In this document: piece after piece, positions 1 through 8,766 of the stretch | How the letters are laid out: each line of letters starts with the position of its first letter | Position numbering within the stretch: the stretch's first letter is position 1 | Source: an uncultured Gammaproteobacteria bacterium | GTDB taxonomy: Bacteria; Pseudomonadota; Gammaproteobacteria; JACCXJ01 | Direction of reading: 5' to 3' | Length of the DNA: 64,000 nucleotides | NCBI GenBank assembly: GCA_963764725.1 | Contig: CAVXTM010000001.1 | Span: forward strand, 1-64,000 | Notes under the pieces: generated by a model | What the model saw: only the letters and a program-made list of their open reading frames with translations | What the model was told of the DNA's origin: nothing | Database searches by the model: none | Program-made: the position numbers and the translations under genes

Positions 1-243
1 AAGATCCCAGCGCAACTGAACGTTCATCCAAAAATCAGCCGACATGCCAAAGAACCTCTCTAACCGAAGCGCTGTGCTTGGCGTGATTCCCCGGCGCTCA
101 TTGATAATTTCGTTAATACGCTGGTACGGGACGTGAATAGCGTCCGCCAGCTCGCGCTGGGTCAAACCCGTGGGATTCAGAAATTCCTCCAACAACATCT
201 CGCCGGGATGCGTGGGGGAGCGGTCTGTGGGAATGCGAACCAT
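1..243 (-). CDS. higA: HigA-family antitoxin (XRE HTH), runs off window start
   Basis: Manual translation from ATG at 243: MVRIPTDRSPTHPGEMLLEEFLNPTGLTQRELADAIHVPYQRINEIINERRGITPSTALRLERFFGMSADFWMNVQLRWDL; HPGExL and FWxNxQ motifs; directly downstream of higB. Confidence 0.92.
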   Translation of the reverse strand, partial: MVRIPTDRSPTHPGEMLLEEFLNPTGLTQRELADAIHVPYQRINEIINERRGITPSTALRLERFFGMSADFWMNVQLRWDL

Positions 244-256
244 GGCTTAACCCTCT

Positions 257-547
257 TTAGCTGTCACCGATTTCCACTTGATCAGGACCCTGTTCCGACC
301 AGACAAAGCAGATTCTGTAGCGGTCGTTGATACGGATGCTATGCTGCCCTTTGCGATCGCCATAAAGGGCTTCCAGGCGATTACCGGGCGGTATATGTAG
401 TTCATCCAGTGTTGTAACGGAGTCAAGCTGATCGAGCTTTCGGACTGCGACCTTCCATAACGATACCGGACAGGTTTTGCGCGCAGCTTTGGTGTTCCTG
501 CCATGAAAAAGGTCTTCTGTACCCCCGTCTCCAAATGAGACGATCAT
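257..547 (-). CDS. higB: HigB (RelE-superfamily) toxin
   Basis: MIVSF...PPGNRLEALYGDRKGQHSIRINDRYRICFVW, typical HigB killer protein; toxin-first order with higA. Confidence 0.92.
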   Translation of the reverse strand: MIVSFGDGGTEDLFHGRNTKAARKTCPVSLWKVAVRKLDQLDSVTTLDELHIPPGNRLEALYGDRKGQHSIRINDRYRICFVWSEQGPDQVEIGDS

Positions 548-557
548 AATACCATGA

Positions 558-576
558 TAGCATGGAAGTCATGCTA
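558..576. promoter_or_regulatory. Inverted repeat, probable HigA operator
   Basis: TAGCATG-GAAGT-CATGCTA immediately upstream of higB, in the 105-bp gap shared with divergent RT-cas1. Confidence 0.55.
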
Positions 577-652
577 CTATAGCAACGCCTACTCACTGTC
601 GGCGAAGGTTTCGCCCTATCCCGTAACCGAGCCATCGAAACGCTGAATCACC

Positions 653-2933
653 ATGCCCGCCCTCCTGCATCAAGTCCTCGCTTTCGCCACCCTGCGCGAC
701 GCTTGGCACAGGGTGCGAGAAAACCGGGGCTGCGCGGGCGGGGACGGGGAAACGCTGGAGCAGTTCGAGACGCATCTGGAGACCCAGCTCGCGGCGCTTC
801 GCAACGAGGTCGTTCAAGGCAGCTACGAGCCGCGTCCGCTCTTGAGCGTCGTCGTGGGATCTCCCGGCAAGCAGCCGCGGCAGCTCGCGGTGCCCGCGGT
901 GCGGGATCGGGTGCTGCAAACGGCGGCGGCGCTCGTGCTCACGCCCCTCTTCGAGGCCGAGTTCGAGGACTGCAGCTTCGCCTATCGCCGCGGGCGCTCG
1001 GTCGATCAAGCCGTCCGCCGCATCATGCAGTACCGGGATCAGGGCTTCCGCTGGGTTGTAGACGCGGACATCGCCTCCTTCTTCGCCGAGATCGATCACG
1101 AGCGCTTGCTGCGCGAGGTGGCCGAGCTGGTTCAGGACGTGCGGATCATAGATCTCATAAAGATATGGCTCAAAGCACCGCTCACGGACTTTGAGACGAC
1201 CTGGCGGCCGACGAAAGGCATCGCACTGGGATCGCCGATTTCGCCGCTGCTTGCGAATCTTTATCTCGATCATCTCGACGAGGCCCTGCTCGGGGAAAAT
1301 CTGCGCTTGGTGCGCTTCTCGGACGATTTCCTGGTCCTCTGCAAGCACGAGGAGCAGGCGGCGCGCGCGCTCGATCTCACCGAAGAGGTCCTGGGGGTCA
1401 TGCGATTGCGGCTGAATCGGGAGAAGACGCGCATCGTCGATTTCGAGCGCGGCTTTCGGTTCCTGGGGGTGGAGTTTGTCCGCAACCTGGTGCTTAAATG
1501 CCGCACGACCGACGAGCAAACCGACTACGCCGAGATGCTGCCGCCGGAGGAGCCGGGCGCCGATAACGCCGGTGCCGTTGTACGTGGAAGCCGAAGCGGT
1601 GCTGGTGGAGGCCGAGCCCGCGATCCAAGGGGCTTTGACGTTGGCCCTGACTGAGGTGCTTAAGCAAAAGCAGGAGGACACGGCGCCGGGCGCGGATGCA
1701 GAGGACAGCCTCGCGATCGACGACAGAGGAGGAGCCGACCGCGGACAGTGATCCTATCCTCCGCACCTTATATCTCATGGAGCACGGTTGCGTCCTGGGA
1801 AAAGAATCCGAGCGTCTGGTGGTGCGAAAGAACGGCGAGGTGCTGCAGGAGGTGCCGGCCATCAAGGTTGATCAGATCATGGTGTTCGGTAACTCGCAGA
1901 TCACGACCCAGGCGATGGCGTTCTGTCTCATCGAGCGCATCCCCATCGTGCTGCTCTCCGGCCGGGGCCGCTACTACGGGGTGATCGACTCGCTGGATAC
2001 CGATCCGGTCCTGCTGCAACGCGATCAGTTCCAACGGTCGGCCGATCCGGACTTCTGCCTTGAGGTGGCGCGGGCGATCGTGACCGGCAAGCTCCAGAAC
2101 ATGCGGCTCATCCTCCGGCGCTATGCGCGCAAGCGCGAGGCGCCGGCCTTGACGGCGGCCGAGCGGTCGCTGCAGGGCTTTGTTGCGGACATCGAAAAGG
2201 CCCGGACGCTCGATGCGCTACGAGGTTACGAAGGCATAGGCTCCAAGGCGTATTTCGAAGCGCTGCGCACGCTCTTGCCCGCGGCGTGGGGATTCAAGAA
2301 ACGCGTCCGCCAGCCGCCGACGGATCCGTTCAATGCCCTCCTGTCCTACGGCTACACCTTGCTCTTCTACAACATCTATGCCCTGGTGAGGGCGCGTGGT
2401 CTGAGCCCACACGCAGGCTTTTTGCATCCGCTCCGCGCCGGTCATCCGGCCCTGGTCTCGGATCTCATCGAGGAGTTCCGTGCGTTGGTCGTGGATGCCC
2501 TGGTGCTGTCACTGGTCCTGAATGGGCGCCTTGCCCTCGAGGATTTCACCTACGCCGAGACGCCGGATAATTCCGGTTCCAGTTCAAAAGTAGAACGCGA
2601 AGCCGACGAGCGAGCGACGAGACATACCGTAGATGGTAGGCGAGGAGTGAGTGAGGAAAGCCAGGCCCAGGGACGGCGCCTGCTTGGCGCGCCGAGGATG
2701 CAAGGCGACAAAGTTATACAATGAAATGGGAGCGGAATAAGGCCTGTATGCTCAGCGATGACGCACGCAAGACGTTCATCCACGCCTTCGAGGCCAAGAT
2801 GAACGCCGCGGTCACCCATCCCGCCACCGGCCAGCGGCTGGATTACCGGCGCTGTGTCGACGAACAGGTAATGACCATGGCGAGCGTCATCCGGGGCAAG
2901 CAAGTCTCCTACACGCCGATGGTGCTCAGATGA
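653..2933 (+). CDS. cas1: Reverse transcriptase-Cas1 fusion (about 700 aa reconstructed), broken by two +1 frameshifts (~1558, ~1723) and a MITE at 2571-2737
   Basis: RT motifs (PAVRDRVLQ, SFAYRRGRS, VVDADIASFF, GIALGSPISPLLANLYL, RFSDDF, FRFLG) in 653-1654; acidic linker in the 1476 frame; Cas1 motifs (RTLYLMEHG, RGYEG, NALLSYGY, GFLH, SDLIEEFR) in 1696-2570; Cas1 C-terminus in 2741-2933. Confidence 0.9.
2571..2737. mobile_element. 167-bp MITE-like insertion in cas1
   Basis: Flanked by TAA duplication (2568-2570, 2738-2740); imperfect 16-bp terminal inverted repeats TTCCGGTTCCAGTTCA / TGAAATGGGAGCGGAA (13/16); removal restores the cas1 frame ...YAETPD-KACMLSDD... Confidence 0.88.
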
Positions 2934-3212
2934 GTCGCTGGTGGATCGTCTCTTACGACATCAGCCGACGATGGGCGCCGCCGCCGGATCGCAGAGATCC
3001 TGGAGGGCTACGGCCAGCGCGTGCAATGGAGCGTCTTCGAGTGTTCTCTGGACGATCGGGTGCTCGAGGAGTTGCGGGCCCGTCTGCGCGAAGAGTTGGA
3101 CGGCGATGCGGACAGCCTCCGCTACTATCCGCTCTGCCTCTGGTGCCGCGAGCGGGTAATCTGGCGAGGACGGGGCATGGCCGCGACCGACTGGAAATAC
3201 ACCGTCGTCTGA
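2930..3212 (+). CDS. cas2: CRISPR-associated Cas2 (first copy), +1 frameshift near 2966
   Basis: WIVSYDI.DDGRRRRIAEILEGYGQRVQWSVFEC...DSLRYYPLC; overlaps cas1 stop (ATGA). Confidence 0.9.
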
Positions 3213-3262
3213 TTGCCAGATACAGGGATGTATCGCCTTACGCACCTAAGGATGGAACGCTT

Positions 3263-3540
3263 ATGTTCGTATTGGTGTGTTACGATATCACCGATGATCG
3301 ACGCCGCTATCGCGTTGCCTCCGAGCTTGAGAATTTTGGCTGCCGGGTGCAGTACAGCGTGTTCGAGTGTCATCTGGAGGAGCCGCAGCTACAAGAGCTG
3401 CAAGCGCGTTTGCTCGACCCTGATCGATGAAGCAAGAGGACCACGTGCGCTATTACGCGCTCTGTCCCAAAGATGAGACTGCGGTACTCGTCGACGGGTT
3501 GGGCCGGAAGACGCCCGACTGGGATTATCGGGTTGTTTGA
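3263..3540 (+). CDS. cas2: CRISPR-associated Cas2 (second copy), two +1 frameshifts near 3420 and 3437
   Basis: MFVLVCYDITDDRRRYRVASELENFGCRVQYSVFEC...DHVRYYALCPKD...DWDYRVV. Confidence 0.9.
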
Positions 3541-3770
3541 GAGTGCATCTCATTGTCAGCGGCCCGAATCGTCAAATTAACGCCGCATGGCGGAAAGCGC
3601 TTGCCGATCAGGAGGTTAGGCTAGTACCTCGTCACGCACGGGCAGATCCTTGATTTATCGAGAGAAACAGGCGAAAAACCGCTTGCATCGCGGACTTGAT
3701 TATGGCAATTTGGGCATGGGCCGCAGGGAAGGGAAATATTGAAAGTGTGTCAAGGAATTGCAGACGAAGG
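3541..3770 (+). promoter_or_regulatory. CRISPR leader
   Basis: Non-coding, lower-GC stretch between cas2 stop and first repeat. Confidence 0.75.
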
Positions 3771-5376
3771 GCTGTTTAACCGACCGGGATCAGAACGGGA
3801 TTGAAACTGTAGACAGCCAGAAGCTCCACTAGATGAAGTTGATCGGCTGTTTAACCGACCGGGATCAGAACGGGATTGAAACCTTCAGTATCTGCGAACA
3901 TGCTAGTCTGTCAACCTCATCGGCTGTTTAACCGACCGGGATCAGAACGGGATTGAAACATCCGATGCTTCGACGTCTCACGCCTGATCATGCTCGTGCT
4001 GTTTAACCGACCGGGATCAGAACGGGATTGAAACATGCTATGATCGACATGTCTAAGCTGCCAAGACTCTGCGCTGTTTAACCGACCGGGATCAGAACGG
4101 GATTGAAACCTGATCATGACGACTAAGCACGTTCGGCACACTCCTTGCTAGCTGTTTAACCGACCGGGATCAGAACGGGATTGAAACCTGTCCAGCTCTG
4201 GTCAACGATCAGGACTACATCGCTACGGCTGTTTAACCGACCGGGATCAGAACGGGATTGAAACCGTACCGCTGACTCGAGTCACCCAATACGTCATACC
4301 GGCTGTTTAACCGACCGGGATCAGAACGGGATTGAAACTTGATAGCCAGAACTGCGTCACGATTGCCAGCTGCCGACCAGTTGCTGTTTAACCGACCGGG
4401 ATCAGAACGGGATTGAAACAGTTATGCCGCATGTCTCATGCGCGATTGCTGAACCAGTGGCTGTTTAACCGACCGGGATCAGAACGGGATTGAAACGTCA
4501 TGGTCGACATCGGTCATCGACGGCAATCAGCAGCTGTTTAACCGACCGGGATCAGAACGGGATTGAAACTCATCTGAGACATCTTGCCCAGGCGATGTCG
4601 ATGCTGTTTAACCGACCGGGATCAGAACGGGATTGAAACTGTACTGCGAGCTTAGCGACGCTCGCGATGACGTGCTTGACGCATGCAGCTGTTTAACCGA
4701 CCGGGATCAGAACGGGATTGAAACTTCCTATGGCGAGACCGCTGTTTAACCGACCGGGATCAGAACGGGATTGAAACTAGTCGACGCATCGTGGGTCGCT
4801 GTTTAACCGACCGGGATCAGAACGGGATTGAAACTCATGCTCGGGTGCTTAGCTGGCTCGGTAGCATCGTGGCTGTTTAACCGACCGGGATCAGAACGGG
4901 ATTGAAACTTCTGCAGATCTGACGGTCACGCTCGTCGTCATCGCTCGATGGCTGTTTAACCGACCGGGATCAGAACGGGATTGAAACCGATGCGCTACTG
5001 CCGTACGCATTGGATACGCTGACGGAGCTGTTTAACCGACCGGGATCAGAACGGGATTGAAACCACTACGCTGATGATGCGATCGCGATATCCATCGCTG
5101 CGGCTGTTTAACCGACCGGGATCAGAACGGGATTGAAACTCCAATGCTGTGCCATCGGCATGACCCATAGCTCTCATTGAGCGCTGTTTAACCGACCGGG
5201 ATCAGAACGGGATTGAAACACAACTTGTCTGCAGCGACGCTGGCTACCTGCGTTGGTCGCTGTTTAACCGACCGGGATCAGAACGGGATTGAAACCTCAC
5301 GAAACTACGCTGTCAGCGGTCACTGTAAGATTGCACGTGGCTGTTTAACCGACCGGGATCAGAACGGGATTGAAAG
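3771..5376 (+). CRISPR. CRISPR array, 22 repeats of 37 bp (GCTGTTTAACCGACCGGGATCAGAACGGGATTGAAAC), 21 spacers of 16-48 bp
   Basis: Repeats counted directly; 21 identical, last ends GAAAG; ATTGAAAC 3' end, leader on the left and degenerate terminal repeat on the right give + orientation. Confidence 0.99.
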
Positions 5377-5381
5377 ATCGG

Positions 5382-5544
5382 ATGTAGGGTGGGTGAGCCG
5401 CGCTGTTTGCGGCGTAACCCACCAACCCGTCGGCCGCAGGCCGACACCTCAACCTGCTTGCGAAGCCGAAATCTAAGGTGACGCGCTTCGCGCGTCGGAT
5501 CGGTGCGTTACGGCGTAAAAAAGCACGCCTAACGCACCCTACAT
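5382..5544. repeat. Inverted pair of GTAG-family REP palindromes (REPIN-like)
   Basis: ATGTAGGGTGGGTGAGCCGC...GCGGCGTAACCCACC at left and GGTGCGTTACGGCG...CGCCTAACGCACCCTACAT at right; GTAG/CTAC feet with hairpins. Confidence 0.75.
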
Positions 5545-5776
5545 TCCTAGAGTCGACAATTTCAAATATCTTCGGCTAGGGACTTGAACGAGGCGGCCGC
5601 CTTTCGCACCGGGAGTGGGAGCTAATCCATAGTTACTCACGAACTTTTCGGAAGAGTCGAAAATTCTGTACCCAGCCCGCGCATTCCCTGTAACATGCAC
5701 GGCCCAGTATAGACACTTGGCATTAGGCTTGACTGGTAATCGTTCACGGAACCCCATAGAAACTTGGCACGCGACG

Positions 5777-6589
5777 ATGAATTTGATCCTATTGTTACCC
5801 GCCTTGATCATGGGCACTCTCGAGGGTCTCACGGAGTTCCTGCCCATCTCGAGCACCGGCCATTTGATTATCGCGGGCGAGCTGTTGGACTTCACCGGCG
5901 AGAGGGCAAAGACCTTCGAGATCGTCATCCAATTGGGCGCCATCCTGGCCGTGTGCTGGTATTATCGCGCGAAGCTTGTCGAGGTGGCGCGCGGGATCAC
6001 GCACAATGCCATTACCCAGCGTTTTCTCGGCAACCTCGCGCTGGCCTTTCTCCCCGCGGCATTCTTGGGCGTGCTGCTGCACCGATTCATCAAAGATCAC
6101 CTGTTTCATCCGATCACGGTGGCCGCGGCCTTGATCCTGGGGGGAGTCGTGATCCTTCTGGTCGAGCGCTCGAAGGGCGAGGCCAGGGTGCATGCGGTCG
6201 AGGACATGTGTTGGCCGGAGGCGCTCAAGATCGGCTGCGTCCAGGCGCTGGCCTTGATCCCCGGCACCTCGCGTTCCGGGGCGACGATCATCGGCGGATT
6301 GGTGTTCGGCCTATCGCGGCAGGCGGCGACGGAATTCTCGTTCTTTCTCGCGATCCCGACCATGTTCGCCGCGACCTTCTATGAGGGCGTAAACAACTGG
6401 CATCTGTTACAGGAGGGCGATCTATCGCTATTCGGGATCGGGTTTACCGCGGCCTTCATCTCCGGCCTCGCTGCCGTCAAGGCGTTGCTTCATTTCGTAA
6501 AAAATCATAGCTTTTGCGTCTTTGCTTACTACCGGATCGTTTTCGGAGGGGTAGTGCTTTCTTATTTTTGGTTAGTTCCAGGGAGTTGA
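5777..6589 (+). CDS. uppP: Undecaprenyl-diphosphate phosphatase
   Basis: EGLTEFLPISSTGH and PGTSRSGAT motifs of BacA/UppP. Confidence 0.95.
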   Translation: MNLILLLPALIMGTLEGLTEFLPISSTGHLIIAGELLDFTGERAKTFEIVIQLGAILAVCWYYRAKLVEVARGITHNAITQRFLGNLALAFLPAAFLGVLLHRFIKDHLFHPITVAAALILGGVVILLVERSKGEARVHAVEDMCWPEALKIGCVQALALIPGTSRSGATIIGGLVFGLSRQAATEFSFFLAIPTMFAATFYEGVNNWHLLQEGDLSLFGIGFTAAFISGLAAVKALLHFVKNHSFCVFAYYRIVFGGVVLSYFWLVPGS

Positions 6590-7216: not shown

Positions 7217-7277
7217 CGTCTATCCGATAAAGAAACTCCACTCGCGAGAGCCCTACCCCAATCGGCGATCGTGGGGT

Positions 7278-7664
7278 TTAGAGTTCGGCTATAGCTATTT
7301 TCAGCGCACGCGCCGCCGCCAGCAACCGCTCGTCGTAACTCGCCAGCGCTACGGTTTGACCCTGGTTGCGGAGGAATTCCATTGAAGCCAGGTGTAACGC
7401 GTCTAAGGTCCGAACAGGCCGGGGGAAAGGCTCCAGCGCACGAGCGAGCACCGGCGGAGCTAGCTCCAGCAAGGCCACGCGGCCTACGAGGGCGCGCACG
7501 TGTTCGCCGTGGGAATGGGCGAGTTTGCGAGCATGGATGCGGGTCCAAAGCTCGTATTCGAGCAAGCGGCTCGCCACCAGCATCTCGTGCCAGAGGCTTT
7601 CCGGCGGCAAGCGATCCTCGGCCAGTAAGTATGCAAGGGCGACCGAGGTATCAAGGTAGATCAC
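7278..7664 (-). CDS. vapC: PIN-domain VapC toxin
   Basis: IYLDTS, RTLDALHLAS, SYDERL motifs. Confidence 0.9.
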   Translation of the reverse strand: MIYLDTSVALAYLLAEDRLPPESLWHEMLVASRLLEYELWTRIHARKLAHSHGEHVRALVGRVALLELAPPVLARALEPFPRPVRTLDALHLASMEFLRNQGQTVALASYDERLLAAARALKIAIAEL

Positions 7665-7951
7665 CGCTCCGAGCGATCCTGCGCAAGCTCTTGCAGGAGT
7701 TGATGATGCGGGGCGACAGGCGCGCGTGCCGGCGGAACGCCCGTCGGCAGCGACGGCGGGATCAGCCAGCCGCGGCGTACCGACTCGGCCAGCAATGCAT
7801 CCGCCAGTAACGGGCTCCTCTCGGCGCGGGGTGGCGTGAGTTCGGCAACCACACGGTCGCGATCCGTGACCAGCACTGTCTCCCCGCTCGCCGCGAGGCG
7901 CACGTACTCACTCAGCTTGTTCTTAAGTATCTTAAGGCCGACCGATCGCAT
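7661..7951 (-). CDS. Phd/YefM-family antitoxin
   Basis: VGLKILKNKLSEYVRLAASGETVLVTDRDRVVAEL; overlaps vapC start. Confidence 0.88.
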   Translation of the reverse strand: MRSVGLKILKNKLSEYVRLAASGETVLVTDRDRVVAELTPPRAERSPLLADALLAESVRRGWLIPPSLPTGVPPARAPVAPHHQLLQELAQDRSER

Positions 7952-7960
7952 GACTACAAG

Positions 7961-7978
7961 GTAGCTTCCGGAAGCTAC
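7961..7978. promoter_or_regulatory. Perfect 18-bp palindrome, probable antitoxin operator
   Basis: GTAGCTTCCGGAAGCTAC, 10 bp upstream of the antitoxin start. Confidence 0.65.
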
Positions 7979-8051
7979 TATGTCAAGCTTCGCGGGGCTA
8001 TCGAACTGCGCGCGCCGTAAAGGTCGCGATCCGCGCCCGTTGACTTTTTCA

Positions 8052-8234
8052 CTAACAGCAACGCCGCACTCCGCTCCACTTGCGCTCGACTTCGGCTTTA
8101 AAAAACTCGGCGCGGGTCATCGGCGTCGCTTCCTCGGCCGCGTGCCGGGCGCGCCAGTGGGTTAGGTAACGCTCATAGGCGTCATCGCCGCTGAGGGCGC
8201 GGAAGATCTGCCATATTCGTTGCAAAAAGCGCAT
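8052..8234 (-). CDS. YbdD/YjiX-family small protein (DUF466)
   Basis: GDDAYERYL..H...PMTRAEFF...RCC C-terminus. Confidence 0.8.
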   Translation of the reverse strand: MRFLQRIWQIFRALSGDDAYERYLTHWRARHAAEEATPMTRAEFFKAEVERKWSGVRRCC

Positions 8235-8274
8235 GCAGTGTTATTCCACTGGAATTAGTAACGCGCCGGGCGGG

Positions 8275-8766
8275 TTACTCTTTCGAGTCCTTGTCGCCGC
8301 CACTCTCGGCGGCTTTCCCGTATAGAAACTGACCGATGACTTGTTCGAAGACCACGGCGGATTGTGTATCCGTGATCACGTCCCCGCCTTTGAGGAATTC
8401 TTCGCTGCCCCCGGGAGCAAGGCTGATGTATTGCTCACCGAGTAACCCGGCCGTGTAGACGTTGGCGCCGGTATCCGCTGGGATCTGATTATACTGCTTG
8501 TCGATCTGTAAAATGGCAACCGCGGTGTACGATTTTGAGTCGAATTCGATGGCGTTGACGCGCCCCACGGTGACACCCGCCATCTTGACCGGCGAACGCA
8601 CCTTCAGTCCGCCGATATTGTCGAACATAGCGCGTATCTCGTAGGTGCTGTCGGCGCCGAAACTGCTGAGACTCAAGTTACTTATTCGCATGGTGAGCAC
8701 CAGCAGCGCTCCCAAGCCGAGCGCGACGAAGGCTCCGACAATGGTTTCGATCCATTTTGAATGCAT
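8275..8766 (-). CDS. mlaD: MCE-domain lipid asymmetry protein MlaD
   Basis: FDNIGGLKVRSPVKMAGVTVGRV, TAGLLGEQYI. Confidence 0.93.
   Translation of the reverse strand: MHSKWIETIVGAFVALGLGALLVLTMRISNLSLSSFGADSTYEIRAMFDNIGGLKVRSPVKMAGVTVGRVNAIEFDSKSYTAVAILQIDKQYNQIPADTGANVYTAGLLGEQYISLAPGGSEEFLKGGDVITDTQSAVVFEQVIGQFLYGKAAESGGDKDSKE

Follow-up and report, generated by a model that had tools for sequence, protein, structure and literature searches.

Does a gene for a reverse transcriptase fused to Cas1 (RT-Cas1), followed by two cas2 genes and a CRISPR array, form a working adaptation module in an uncultured gammaproteobacterium, or is it a relic of one? The question is raised by positions 653 to 5376 of the window, a stretch of 64,000 nucleotides (nt) that is the first 64 kb of contig CAVXTM010000001.1 (C1) in assembly GCA_963764725.1 (G000; 4.21 Mb in 19 contigs, completeness 96.9%). 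As written, none of the three genes (RT-Cas1, cas2a and cas2b) is intact or able to work. The module in G000 is probably, though far from certainly, a truly degenerating orphan with some errors of the record on top. This reading is favored because an insert resembling a miniature inverted-repeat transposable element (MITE) lies in cas1, no effector is found in the assembly, substitutions are doubled over all codon positions, and all three genes are out of frame. Signs of consensus error in the record mean that the spacers of the array should not be read literally.

The module was compared with unpublished genomes of relatives (G005, G008, G009, G010, G012, and G014, with G008 in the same genus) and with a public set consisting of the metagenome contigs L034, L037, and L038 and the proteins P0001 and P0002. 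L037 is the closest public relative, with 91% DNA identity over 1-2570. The three-way codon counts, the finding that G005 shares the insert, the annotations of Cas10, CorA, and DHH, and the survey of frameshifts across the genome all rest on the unpublished genomes. The public set also backs the fusion, the pair of cas2 genes, the synteny of higBA, Uma2, and repeat-associated mysterious protein (RAMP) genes, and the five extra bases. None of the public sequencing runs screened contains this strain (best word share 0.26), and the reads of four metagenome runs over the window come from relatives only.

The module, its lesions and its effector

The RT-Cas1 gene encodes a group II intron-like RT domain with a catalytic xxDD motif, an acidic linker, and a Cas1 domain (Table 1). 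A preliminary description, made from the letters alone, had taken RT and Cas1 for a fusion only two +1 slips apart. The two domains do lie two +1 steps apart: one extra base at ~1567, where the RT-Cas1 frame is lost, and a second at ~1724, in both cases extra relative to G005, G008, and L037. In the window, RT and Cas1 are not one open reading frame (ORF), owing to frame changes at ~1567, ~1724, and ~2720 and a 170-nt insert, and the Cas_Cas1 match is carried by ORF 1696-2724, which has its own ATG. The fusion itself is borne out by relatives, in which RT and cas1 are found as single ORFs rather than separate genes. The orthologues P0001 and P0002 are single ORFs of 699-700 amino acids (aa) at 87% identity, RVT_1 and Cas_Cas1 occur together in 120/120 of the longer homologues listed (~670-810 aa, mostly 670-750 aa), and in G008 RT-Cas1 occupies a single open frame of 711 codons, with two intact cas2 genes after it.

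Among solved structures, the RT part matches GsI-IIC RT (PDB 6ar1, 4e-47) and Cas6-RT-Cas1 (7kft, 2.5e-39), while the Cas1 part matches Cas1 (7cr6, 1.3e-40) and again 7kft (8.2e-29). TIGR04416 scores 268.7 bits against the G008 RT-Cas1 orthologue, under its 300-bit cut-off. An Rfam search over 1-6000 at an expectation value (E) <= 1 returned no RNA family and hence no intron RNA match. As the preliminary description had noted, there is no N-terminal Cas6 domain; 105 nt separate the start of the RT ORF from the divergent higB, which leaves no room for one. The same description gave the active site as FSDD instead of the usual YADD. The FSDD motif is present; the 120 homologues listed carry FADD (82), YADD (25), FSDD (7), YSDD (5), and LVDD (1). 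FSDD is kept in G005 and G008, and L037 has FADD. By this comparison FSDD is a minor variant that retains the catalytic aspartates (DD). L037 has a frame change of its own in the RT domain (~4189-4231 of that locus), with one base fewer at the window's five-G run (~1467-1471).

The MITE-like insert in cas1 is absent from G008, L037, L038, L034, and contigs of metagenome runs X2-X4 (joint 2566->2737). It is common to G005, where it is 45 nt shorter and forms a 126-nt in-frame version. A second copy at 95% identity lies at C8:7468-7642, between lexA-like and imuA-like ORFs (named from translations, not family-scanned), and its ends resemble imperfect inverted repeats. The full form of the insert is 171 nt (57 codons), in frame and stop-free once a missing base is restored. 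Compared with the copies in G005 and on C8, the window copy lacks that base at ~2720, which places the Cas1 tail in the third frame. The REP-like (repetitive extragenic palindrome-like) core of 48 nt has ~30 copies in G000, for example C1:193600-193647 and C18:213174-213221; together with the second copy on C8, these indicate that the insert is a small mobile element. A known ribozyme or intron was ruled out by the empty Rfam search. In four metagenome runs, the depth of the REP-like core is 7- to 30-fold over its surroundings, and loose ends occur at 2655/2656 and 2702/2703.

Two different cas2 genes lie directly downstream, and both are out of frame in the window. Relative to G005, G008, L037, L038, and L034, cas2a is broken by one extra base at ~2963 and cas2b by two, at ~3413 and ~3433, and gap counts in contigs of two metagenome runs agree with extra bases at the cas2 sites. 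Cas2a and Cas2b share 46% identity in L037, and both genes adjoin RT-Cas1 in L037, L034, L038, and L020. Lineage-specific codon changes in relatives (G005 and G008) are mostly synonymous in both genes (12 synonymous and 5 non-synonymous in cas2a, 13 and 2 in cas2b). A 44-nt stretch between the two genes is present in the window and L037 and absent from G005, G008, L038, L034, and two runs; it is a polymorphism and not a lesion.

The lesions of the module thus comprise five extra bases (~1567, ~1724, ~2963, ~3413, and ~3433) and one missing base (~2720), with extra bases called by three-way and pairwise DNA alignment against G005, G008, L037, L038, and L034 where these cover the site. The preliminary description listed the parts correctly, since the RT and Cas1 domains, two cas2 genes, leader, and 22 repeats are all present (Pfam matches and repeat listing), as are the two slips and the acidic linker. 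It understated the damage, leaving out the insert and the missing base in cas1, the extra base in cas2a, and the two in cas2b.

The effector genes are found in relatives. In G005, G008, and L037, the upstream order is RT-Cas1, higBA, a Uma2 nuclease gene, and then a type III-D-like cluster. This cluster encodes a TIGR03986-family RAMP, a double Cas7/Csx7-like RAMP (Cas7-IIId), Csm4/Cas5-IIId-like pieces, a small Cas10 (PADLOC 4e-42; Pfam palm2 24.7 bits, under the cut-off of 27), a CorA-like protein (4.6e-41), and a DHH hydrolase of the CorA-associated kind (DHH_CorA, 7e-39). In the G000 assembly, family searches with PF03787, TIGR02577, PF10040, and PF01881 (RAMP, Cmr2, and two Cas6 families) gave no match. 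A tblastn search with 17 ORFs from G005 and G008 against its 19 contigs matched 0/15 of the effector-cluster ORFs, and the remaining 2/17 queries (Uma2 ORFs) found only paralogues at 30-41%. A type III-D system with CorA and DHH ancillary genes is therefore present in relatives and not found in G000. The suggestion that higBA separates the module from its effector fits L037, G005, and G008, where Uma2 also intervenes, but G000 has no effector in its assembly; likewise, the proposed genome-wide search for cas10, cas7, and cas6 found none in G000 and a cluster upstream in relatives. The contig begins inside higA, so the assembly breaks at the island.

The only other cas DNA in G000 is a truncated cas1 with cas2 at C12:284.4-285.3 kb (L003 9412-10324). 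It retains the Cas1 C-terminal half (profile 178-283), adjoins a 1,328-aa ORF of unknown kind, and has no repeats within 20 kb; it is a remnant of another CRISPR system. The relatives' clusters also contain genes that look split: the TIGR03986-type RAMP of L037 occupies two ORFs (7276-8717; 155 and 319 aa), and two ORFs of 389 and 286 aa in G008 (L017 6989-8910) each match one half of a single 652-position Csm4 (III-D) profile.

Real decay and consensus error

Substitutions in the cas genes point to real decay. There, 201 changes are specific to G000 (50/41/110 over the three codon positions), whereas G005 has 101 and G008 has 91; ten flanking genes (3,746 codons) show no such imbalance among the three lineages (333/305/293, of which 68-71% fall at position 3). 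The G000-specific cas excess is spread about evenly over codon positions, and the transitions and transversions among G000-specific changes in 653-3540 number 113/90, close to the 57/44 of G005. Relatives are often broken as well, by a 20-nt deletion in G005, one frame change in L037, and large deletions in L034; G010, G014, and G009 hold module fragments in several frames. Every real gene in the 19 kb downstream of the module is in one frame. A drop in quality toward the contig end was considered and rejected, as the first 1.5 kb (higBA and the RT core) are without a frame-breaking indel. A further candidate, selection that preserves the RT as Cas1 and Cas2 degrade, is not seen in the codon-position counts (RT core 18/13/35, Cas1 14/13/39).

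A possible but more doubtful alternative is an intact module that functions in the cell. Long-read consensus errors at a strain-variable locus would then account for the six indels and the odd spacers, the MITE would be tolerated in frame, and the effector would lie on unassembled or unbinned sequence. Several results favor this account and weigh against decay. The assembly was built with long reads or similar, judging by a 1.69-kb element of which it holds at least five internal copies (99.1-99.8% identity). Unmatched insertions also occur outside the module. In a frameshift survey of 131 ORFs from 400 kb of G008 with a G000 counterpart at >= 80% identity, 114 counterparts were full-length in one frame, 11 partial, and 6 multi-frame (one of them an insertion sequence (IS) copy). 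The five other genes, out of ~120 orthologous genes outside the module, carry 8 unmatched +1 insertions and 0 unmatched -1 relative to G008 (Table 1), and several of these extra bases come after an A run. Bacterial pseudogenes are usually deletion-biased, and insertions here make up 13/14 of the unmatched frameshifts. The extra bases elsewhere are either consensus errors or the product of an unusual insertion-only spectrum. They come without signs of relaxed selection; LigD, for instance, shows normal divergence (5.2%) and a codon-position ratio of 0.54 against a median of 0.57, a pattern that errors fit better than an old pseudogene does. One candidate regularity, that inserted bases never equal a neighbor, was rejected: genome-wide, 8/20 single extra bases do equal one.

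Evidence from the module itself also counts on this side. The 22 repeats are almost perfect, with 1 change in 814 nt where ~4% neutral divergence predicts ~30. For the cas changes specific to G000, the ratio (pos1+pos2)/pos3 is 0.83, within the range of intact genes (pairwise values, 75th percentile 0.78 and 95th percentile 1.47). The restored MITE reads through in frame, and G005 keeps its shorter in-frame version. The contig ends exactly at the island, and absence of the effector from a 96.9%-complete assembly that breaks there does not show absence from the cell. Decay also leaves the odd composition of the spacers, described below, unexplained. Array variants that coexist in single metagenomes supply the precondition for a muddled consensus. 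Other results count against an intact module: the cas substitution excess is spread over codon positions with a natural transition share, no lesions disturb either the 1.5 kb next to the contig end or the 19 kb downstream, a muddled consensus, when crudely simulated, came out longer and missed the spacer composition, and effector homologues occur on 0/19 contigs. The assembly alone fits both real decay and consensus error, and any of the six indels may be real or an error; a degenerating orphan with added record errors is the account given more weight here.

The 1.69-kb element is IS-like, with an ORF of ~500-546 codons, and lies at C1:192785-194475, C9:32686-34379, C15:363547-365239, C5:42556-44244, and C18:212347-214039. 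Two of these copies carry single extra bases.

Table 1. Features of the module and its upstream neighbors in the window, and unmatched extra bases elsewhere in the assembly (contig-prefixed coordinates).
Feature	Coordinates	Strand	Evidence or remark
higA-like helix-turn-helix (HTH) antitoxin	1..243	-	HTH_3 (PF01381) E 4e-11; cut by contig start, ~22 codons missing
higB-like toxin, 96 aa, intact	257..547	-	HigB-like_toxin (PF05015) E 1e-13; divergent from RT-Cas1
RT domain of RT-Cas1, group II intron-like, FSDD	653..1566	+	RVT_1 E 1.4e-31 in ORF 653-1654
Acidic RT-Cas1 linker, second frame	1568..1723	+	in ORF 1476-1751; same linker in intact L037 and G008 proteins
Cas1 domain, N-terminal and main part	1725..2569	+	Cas_Cas1 E 1.1e-85, profile 1-264 of 283
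170-nt MITE-like insert in cas1	2570..2737	+	48-nt REP-like core 2656-2703; one base missing ~2720
Cas1 C-terminal 65-70 codons, third frame	2738..2933	+	ORF 2721-2933 aligns to residues 647-711 of intact orthologue
cas2a	2930..3212	+	Cas2 profile 29-73 in ORF 3021-3212; start overlaps cas1 stop (ATGA)
cas2b	3263..3540	+	Cas2 profile 1-50, E 2.4e-19 (match 3263-3430)
Leader, 230 nt	3541..3770	+	between cas2b and first repeat; no indel relative to G005
CRISPR array, 22 repeats of 37 nt ending ATTGAAAC, 21 spacers	3771..5376	+	repeat listing
Unmatched +1 in LigD, three	C15:274585, 274913, 275624		relative to G008
Unmatched +1 in HsdR_N protein, two	C15:107068, 107125		relative to G008
Unmatched +1 in PAP2 phosphatase, one	C8:9550		relative to G008
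Unmatched +1 in GT4 glycosyltransferase, one	C7:46103		relative to G008
Unmatched +1 in ZIP transporter, one	C18:378117		relative to G008

The CRISPR array and its spacers

The leader and the CRISPR array adjoin the module, with the repeats starting 230 nt after cas2b. Of the 22 repeats, 21 are identical and the last one ends in G instead of C; a second array was found nowhere in G000. The spacer lengths given in the preliminary description, 33-48 nt apart from two short ones, are correct as recorded. The short spacers, of 16 and 20 nt, are neighbors and total 36 nt, as though a repeat had been placed within one spacer. Seven arrays with an identical repeat (L033-L039, 69 spacers) have spacers of 35-41 nt in 68/69 cases, and the wide range of spacer lengths is not a trait of this CRISPR family.

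The recorded spacers also have an odd composition. The fraction of identical neighbors in the 21 spacers is 0.114 versus 0.251 +/- 0.015 (z -8.8), which corresponds to a count of 88 against a mean of 193, a standard deviation of 12, and a minimum of 146 in 5,000 length-matched genome samples. Identity at lag 2 is likewise low (0.179 versus 0.250 +/- 0.016), and lags 3-8 are normal. Spacer 4-mers with four different letters reach 0.204 versus 0.087 +/- 0.013 (maximum 0.139 in 1,000 samples). The neighbor depletion is seen in 20/21 spacers, word sharing among spacers does not exceed that of a first-order model, and none of the genome's 300-nt windows is equally extreme on both measures. In the seven arrays with the same repeat, the identical-neighbor fraction is 0.24-0.30.

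Apart from matches to the repeats, searches for protospacers with the whole array found no match in phages, only chance matches of 12-21 nt in the organism's own genome, and, in plasmids, one 59-nt match at 78% (E 0.4) that was counted as chance. Against 15 family genomes, the array matched other arrays only.

Single metagenomes hold many coexisting array variants with this repeat, which makes a muddled consensus possible. When a majority consensus of unrelated spacers was crudely simulated with MAFFT (20 trials each for 6 or 20 'reads'), lengths came out at 36-60 nt, but the identical-neighbor fraction was 0.22-0.29 and the composition was not reproduced. Homopolymer compression alone also fails as an explanation, as it would shorten the spacers and yields no lag-2 depletion. 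The recorded spacers and their variable length are treated here as unreliable.

It is highly improbable that the 21 spacers are real, were not copied from ordinary genomes or transcripts, and were integrated after template-independent or 'random' synthesis linked to the RT. The deviations in neighbor identity, lag-2 identity, and 4-mers, the spread of lengths from 33 to 48 nt, and the lack of matches in the organism's own genome, phages, plasmids, and family genomes are what such a source would lead one to expect, although the 69 spacers of the seven same-repeat arrays, which include close relatives with FSDD or FADD, are normal in composition and 35-41 nt long. The record carries other quality flags, and the enzyme is broken here. 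We know of no polymerase bias that yields avoidance of the last two letters. Silas et al. 2017 (PMC5513706) raise 'a random process' for RT-linked spacers as an unsupported possibility.

Programmed +1 frameshifting, or a deliberate split of RT and Cas1 into two genes, could draw on the two +1 steps in the linker and on the ATG of ORF 1696-2724, but it can be set aside as having next to no likelihood, since the extra bases are absent in five relatives and fall in unrelated places with no common slippery motif, both cas2 genes and the cas1 tail are also hit, and the orthologues are single ORFs.

Known systems, neighboring features and meaning

The module is of a kind already known: a type III-D-linked RT-Cas1 that comes with a pair of Cas2 proteins has been published and functionally tested. 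According to Gonzalez-Delgado et al. 2019 (PMC6821258), Vibrio vulnificus YJ016 encodes a 690-aa RT-Cas1 ('RT-CRISPR clade 6'), Cas2A, Cas2B, and an array that together form a working type III-D adaptation module. Acquisition needs both Cas2 proteins and a heterodimer is proposed; the acquired spacers are mostly 34-38 bp, with RNA as a possible source. The same paper describes two Cas2 proteins as typical of clade 6 and as common in clade 13. The idea of a heteromeric Cas2, raised in the preliminary description, finds a parallel in these two different and jointly required proteins, but it is not new.

The window resembles the V. vulnificus module in its Cas6-less RT-Cas1 of ~690-700 aa, two different cas2 genes downstream, and adjacent array, and a type III-D effector is also nearby, though for this module in relatives only. 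It differs in its FSDD motif (YADD in V. vulnificus) and in the identity between Cas2a and Cas2b, which is 46% in L037 compared with ~70% reported for Vibrio. In addition, the relatives' effector has CorA-like and DHH genes and is set apart by Uma2 and higBA, and the window copy is out of frame and contains a MITE. The likeness is one of gene arrangement.

The Thiomicrospira Cas6-RT-Cas1-Cas2 integrase (PDB 7kft/7kfu) and the Marinomonas mediterranea Cas6-RT-Cas1 (type III-B) share the order of RT followed by Cas1. Those proteins have an N-terminal Cas6 domain and a single Cas2, whereas the window has no Cas6 domain and its genome no Cas6 family match. Group II intron RTs, represented by GsI-IIC RT (6ar1), provide the best solved-structure match of the RT part; unlike them, the RT of the window is fused to Cas1 and has no Rfam intron RNA match in 1-6000.

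By analogy with V. vulnificus, an RT-Cas1/Cas2a/Cas2b complex in working relatives would integrate spacers of ~35-41 nt at the leader end. The source of these spacers may be DNA, or RNA through reverse transcription, an RNA capability that is predicted for the module by homology. A Cas10/Csm-type complex, whose genes lie upstream on the far side of Uma2 and higBA together with CorA-like and DHH-hydrolase ancillaries, would then be armed by the CRISPR RNAs.

The genes upstream of RT-Cas1 form a HigBA type II toxin-antitoxin pair, with a HigB-like RelE-fold toxin beside an HTH antitoxin. The toxin aligns with its relatives in one frame, and the orthologue of the truncated antitoxin in L037 is 103 aa long. 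On the other side of the module, a 68-nt repeated element (5381-5449) directly follows the array, with a weaker inverted copy at 5476-5544 and ~9 copies in G000; its depth in metagenome runs is thousands to tens of thousands. Farther downstream, two small overlapping ORFs on the minus strand (7278-7951; 128 and 96 aa) look, from their translations only, like a PIN-like toxin and a small antitoxin.

As a system, the window adds little, as intact orthologues of this gene are available in public data. It does serve as a caution, for a long-read-type record with +1 insertions and odd spacers can mimic frameshift or variable-spacer biology. If the spacers were nonetheless real, they would bear on the open question of the origin of RT-linked spacers. 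For the biology of the group, the locus shows a MITE-like element that landed in frame in cas1, and the relatives tie the module to a type III-D cluster that has CorA-like and DHH genes and lies past higBA and Uma2. In this gammaproteobacterial group, the module is repeatedly found broken, by different lesions.

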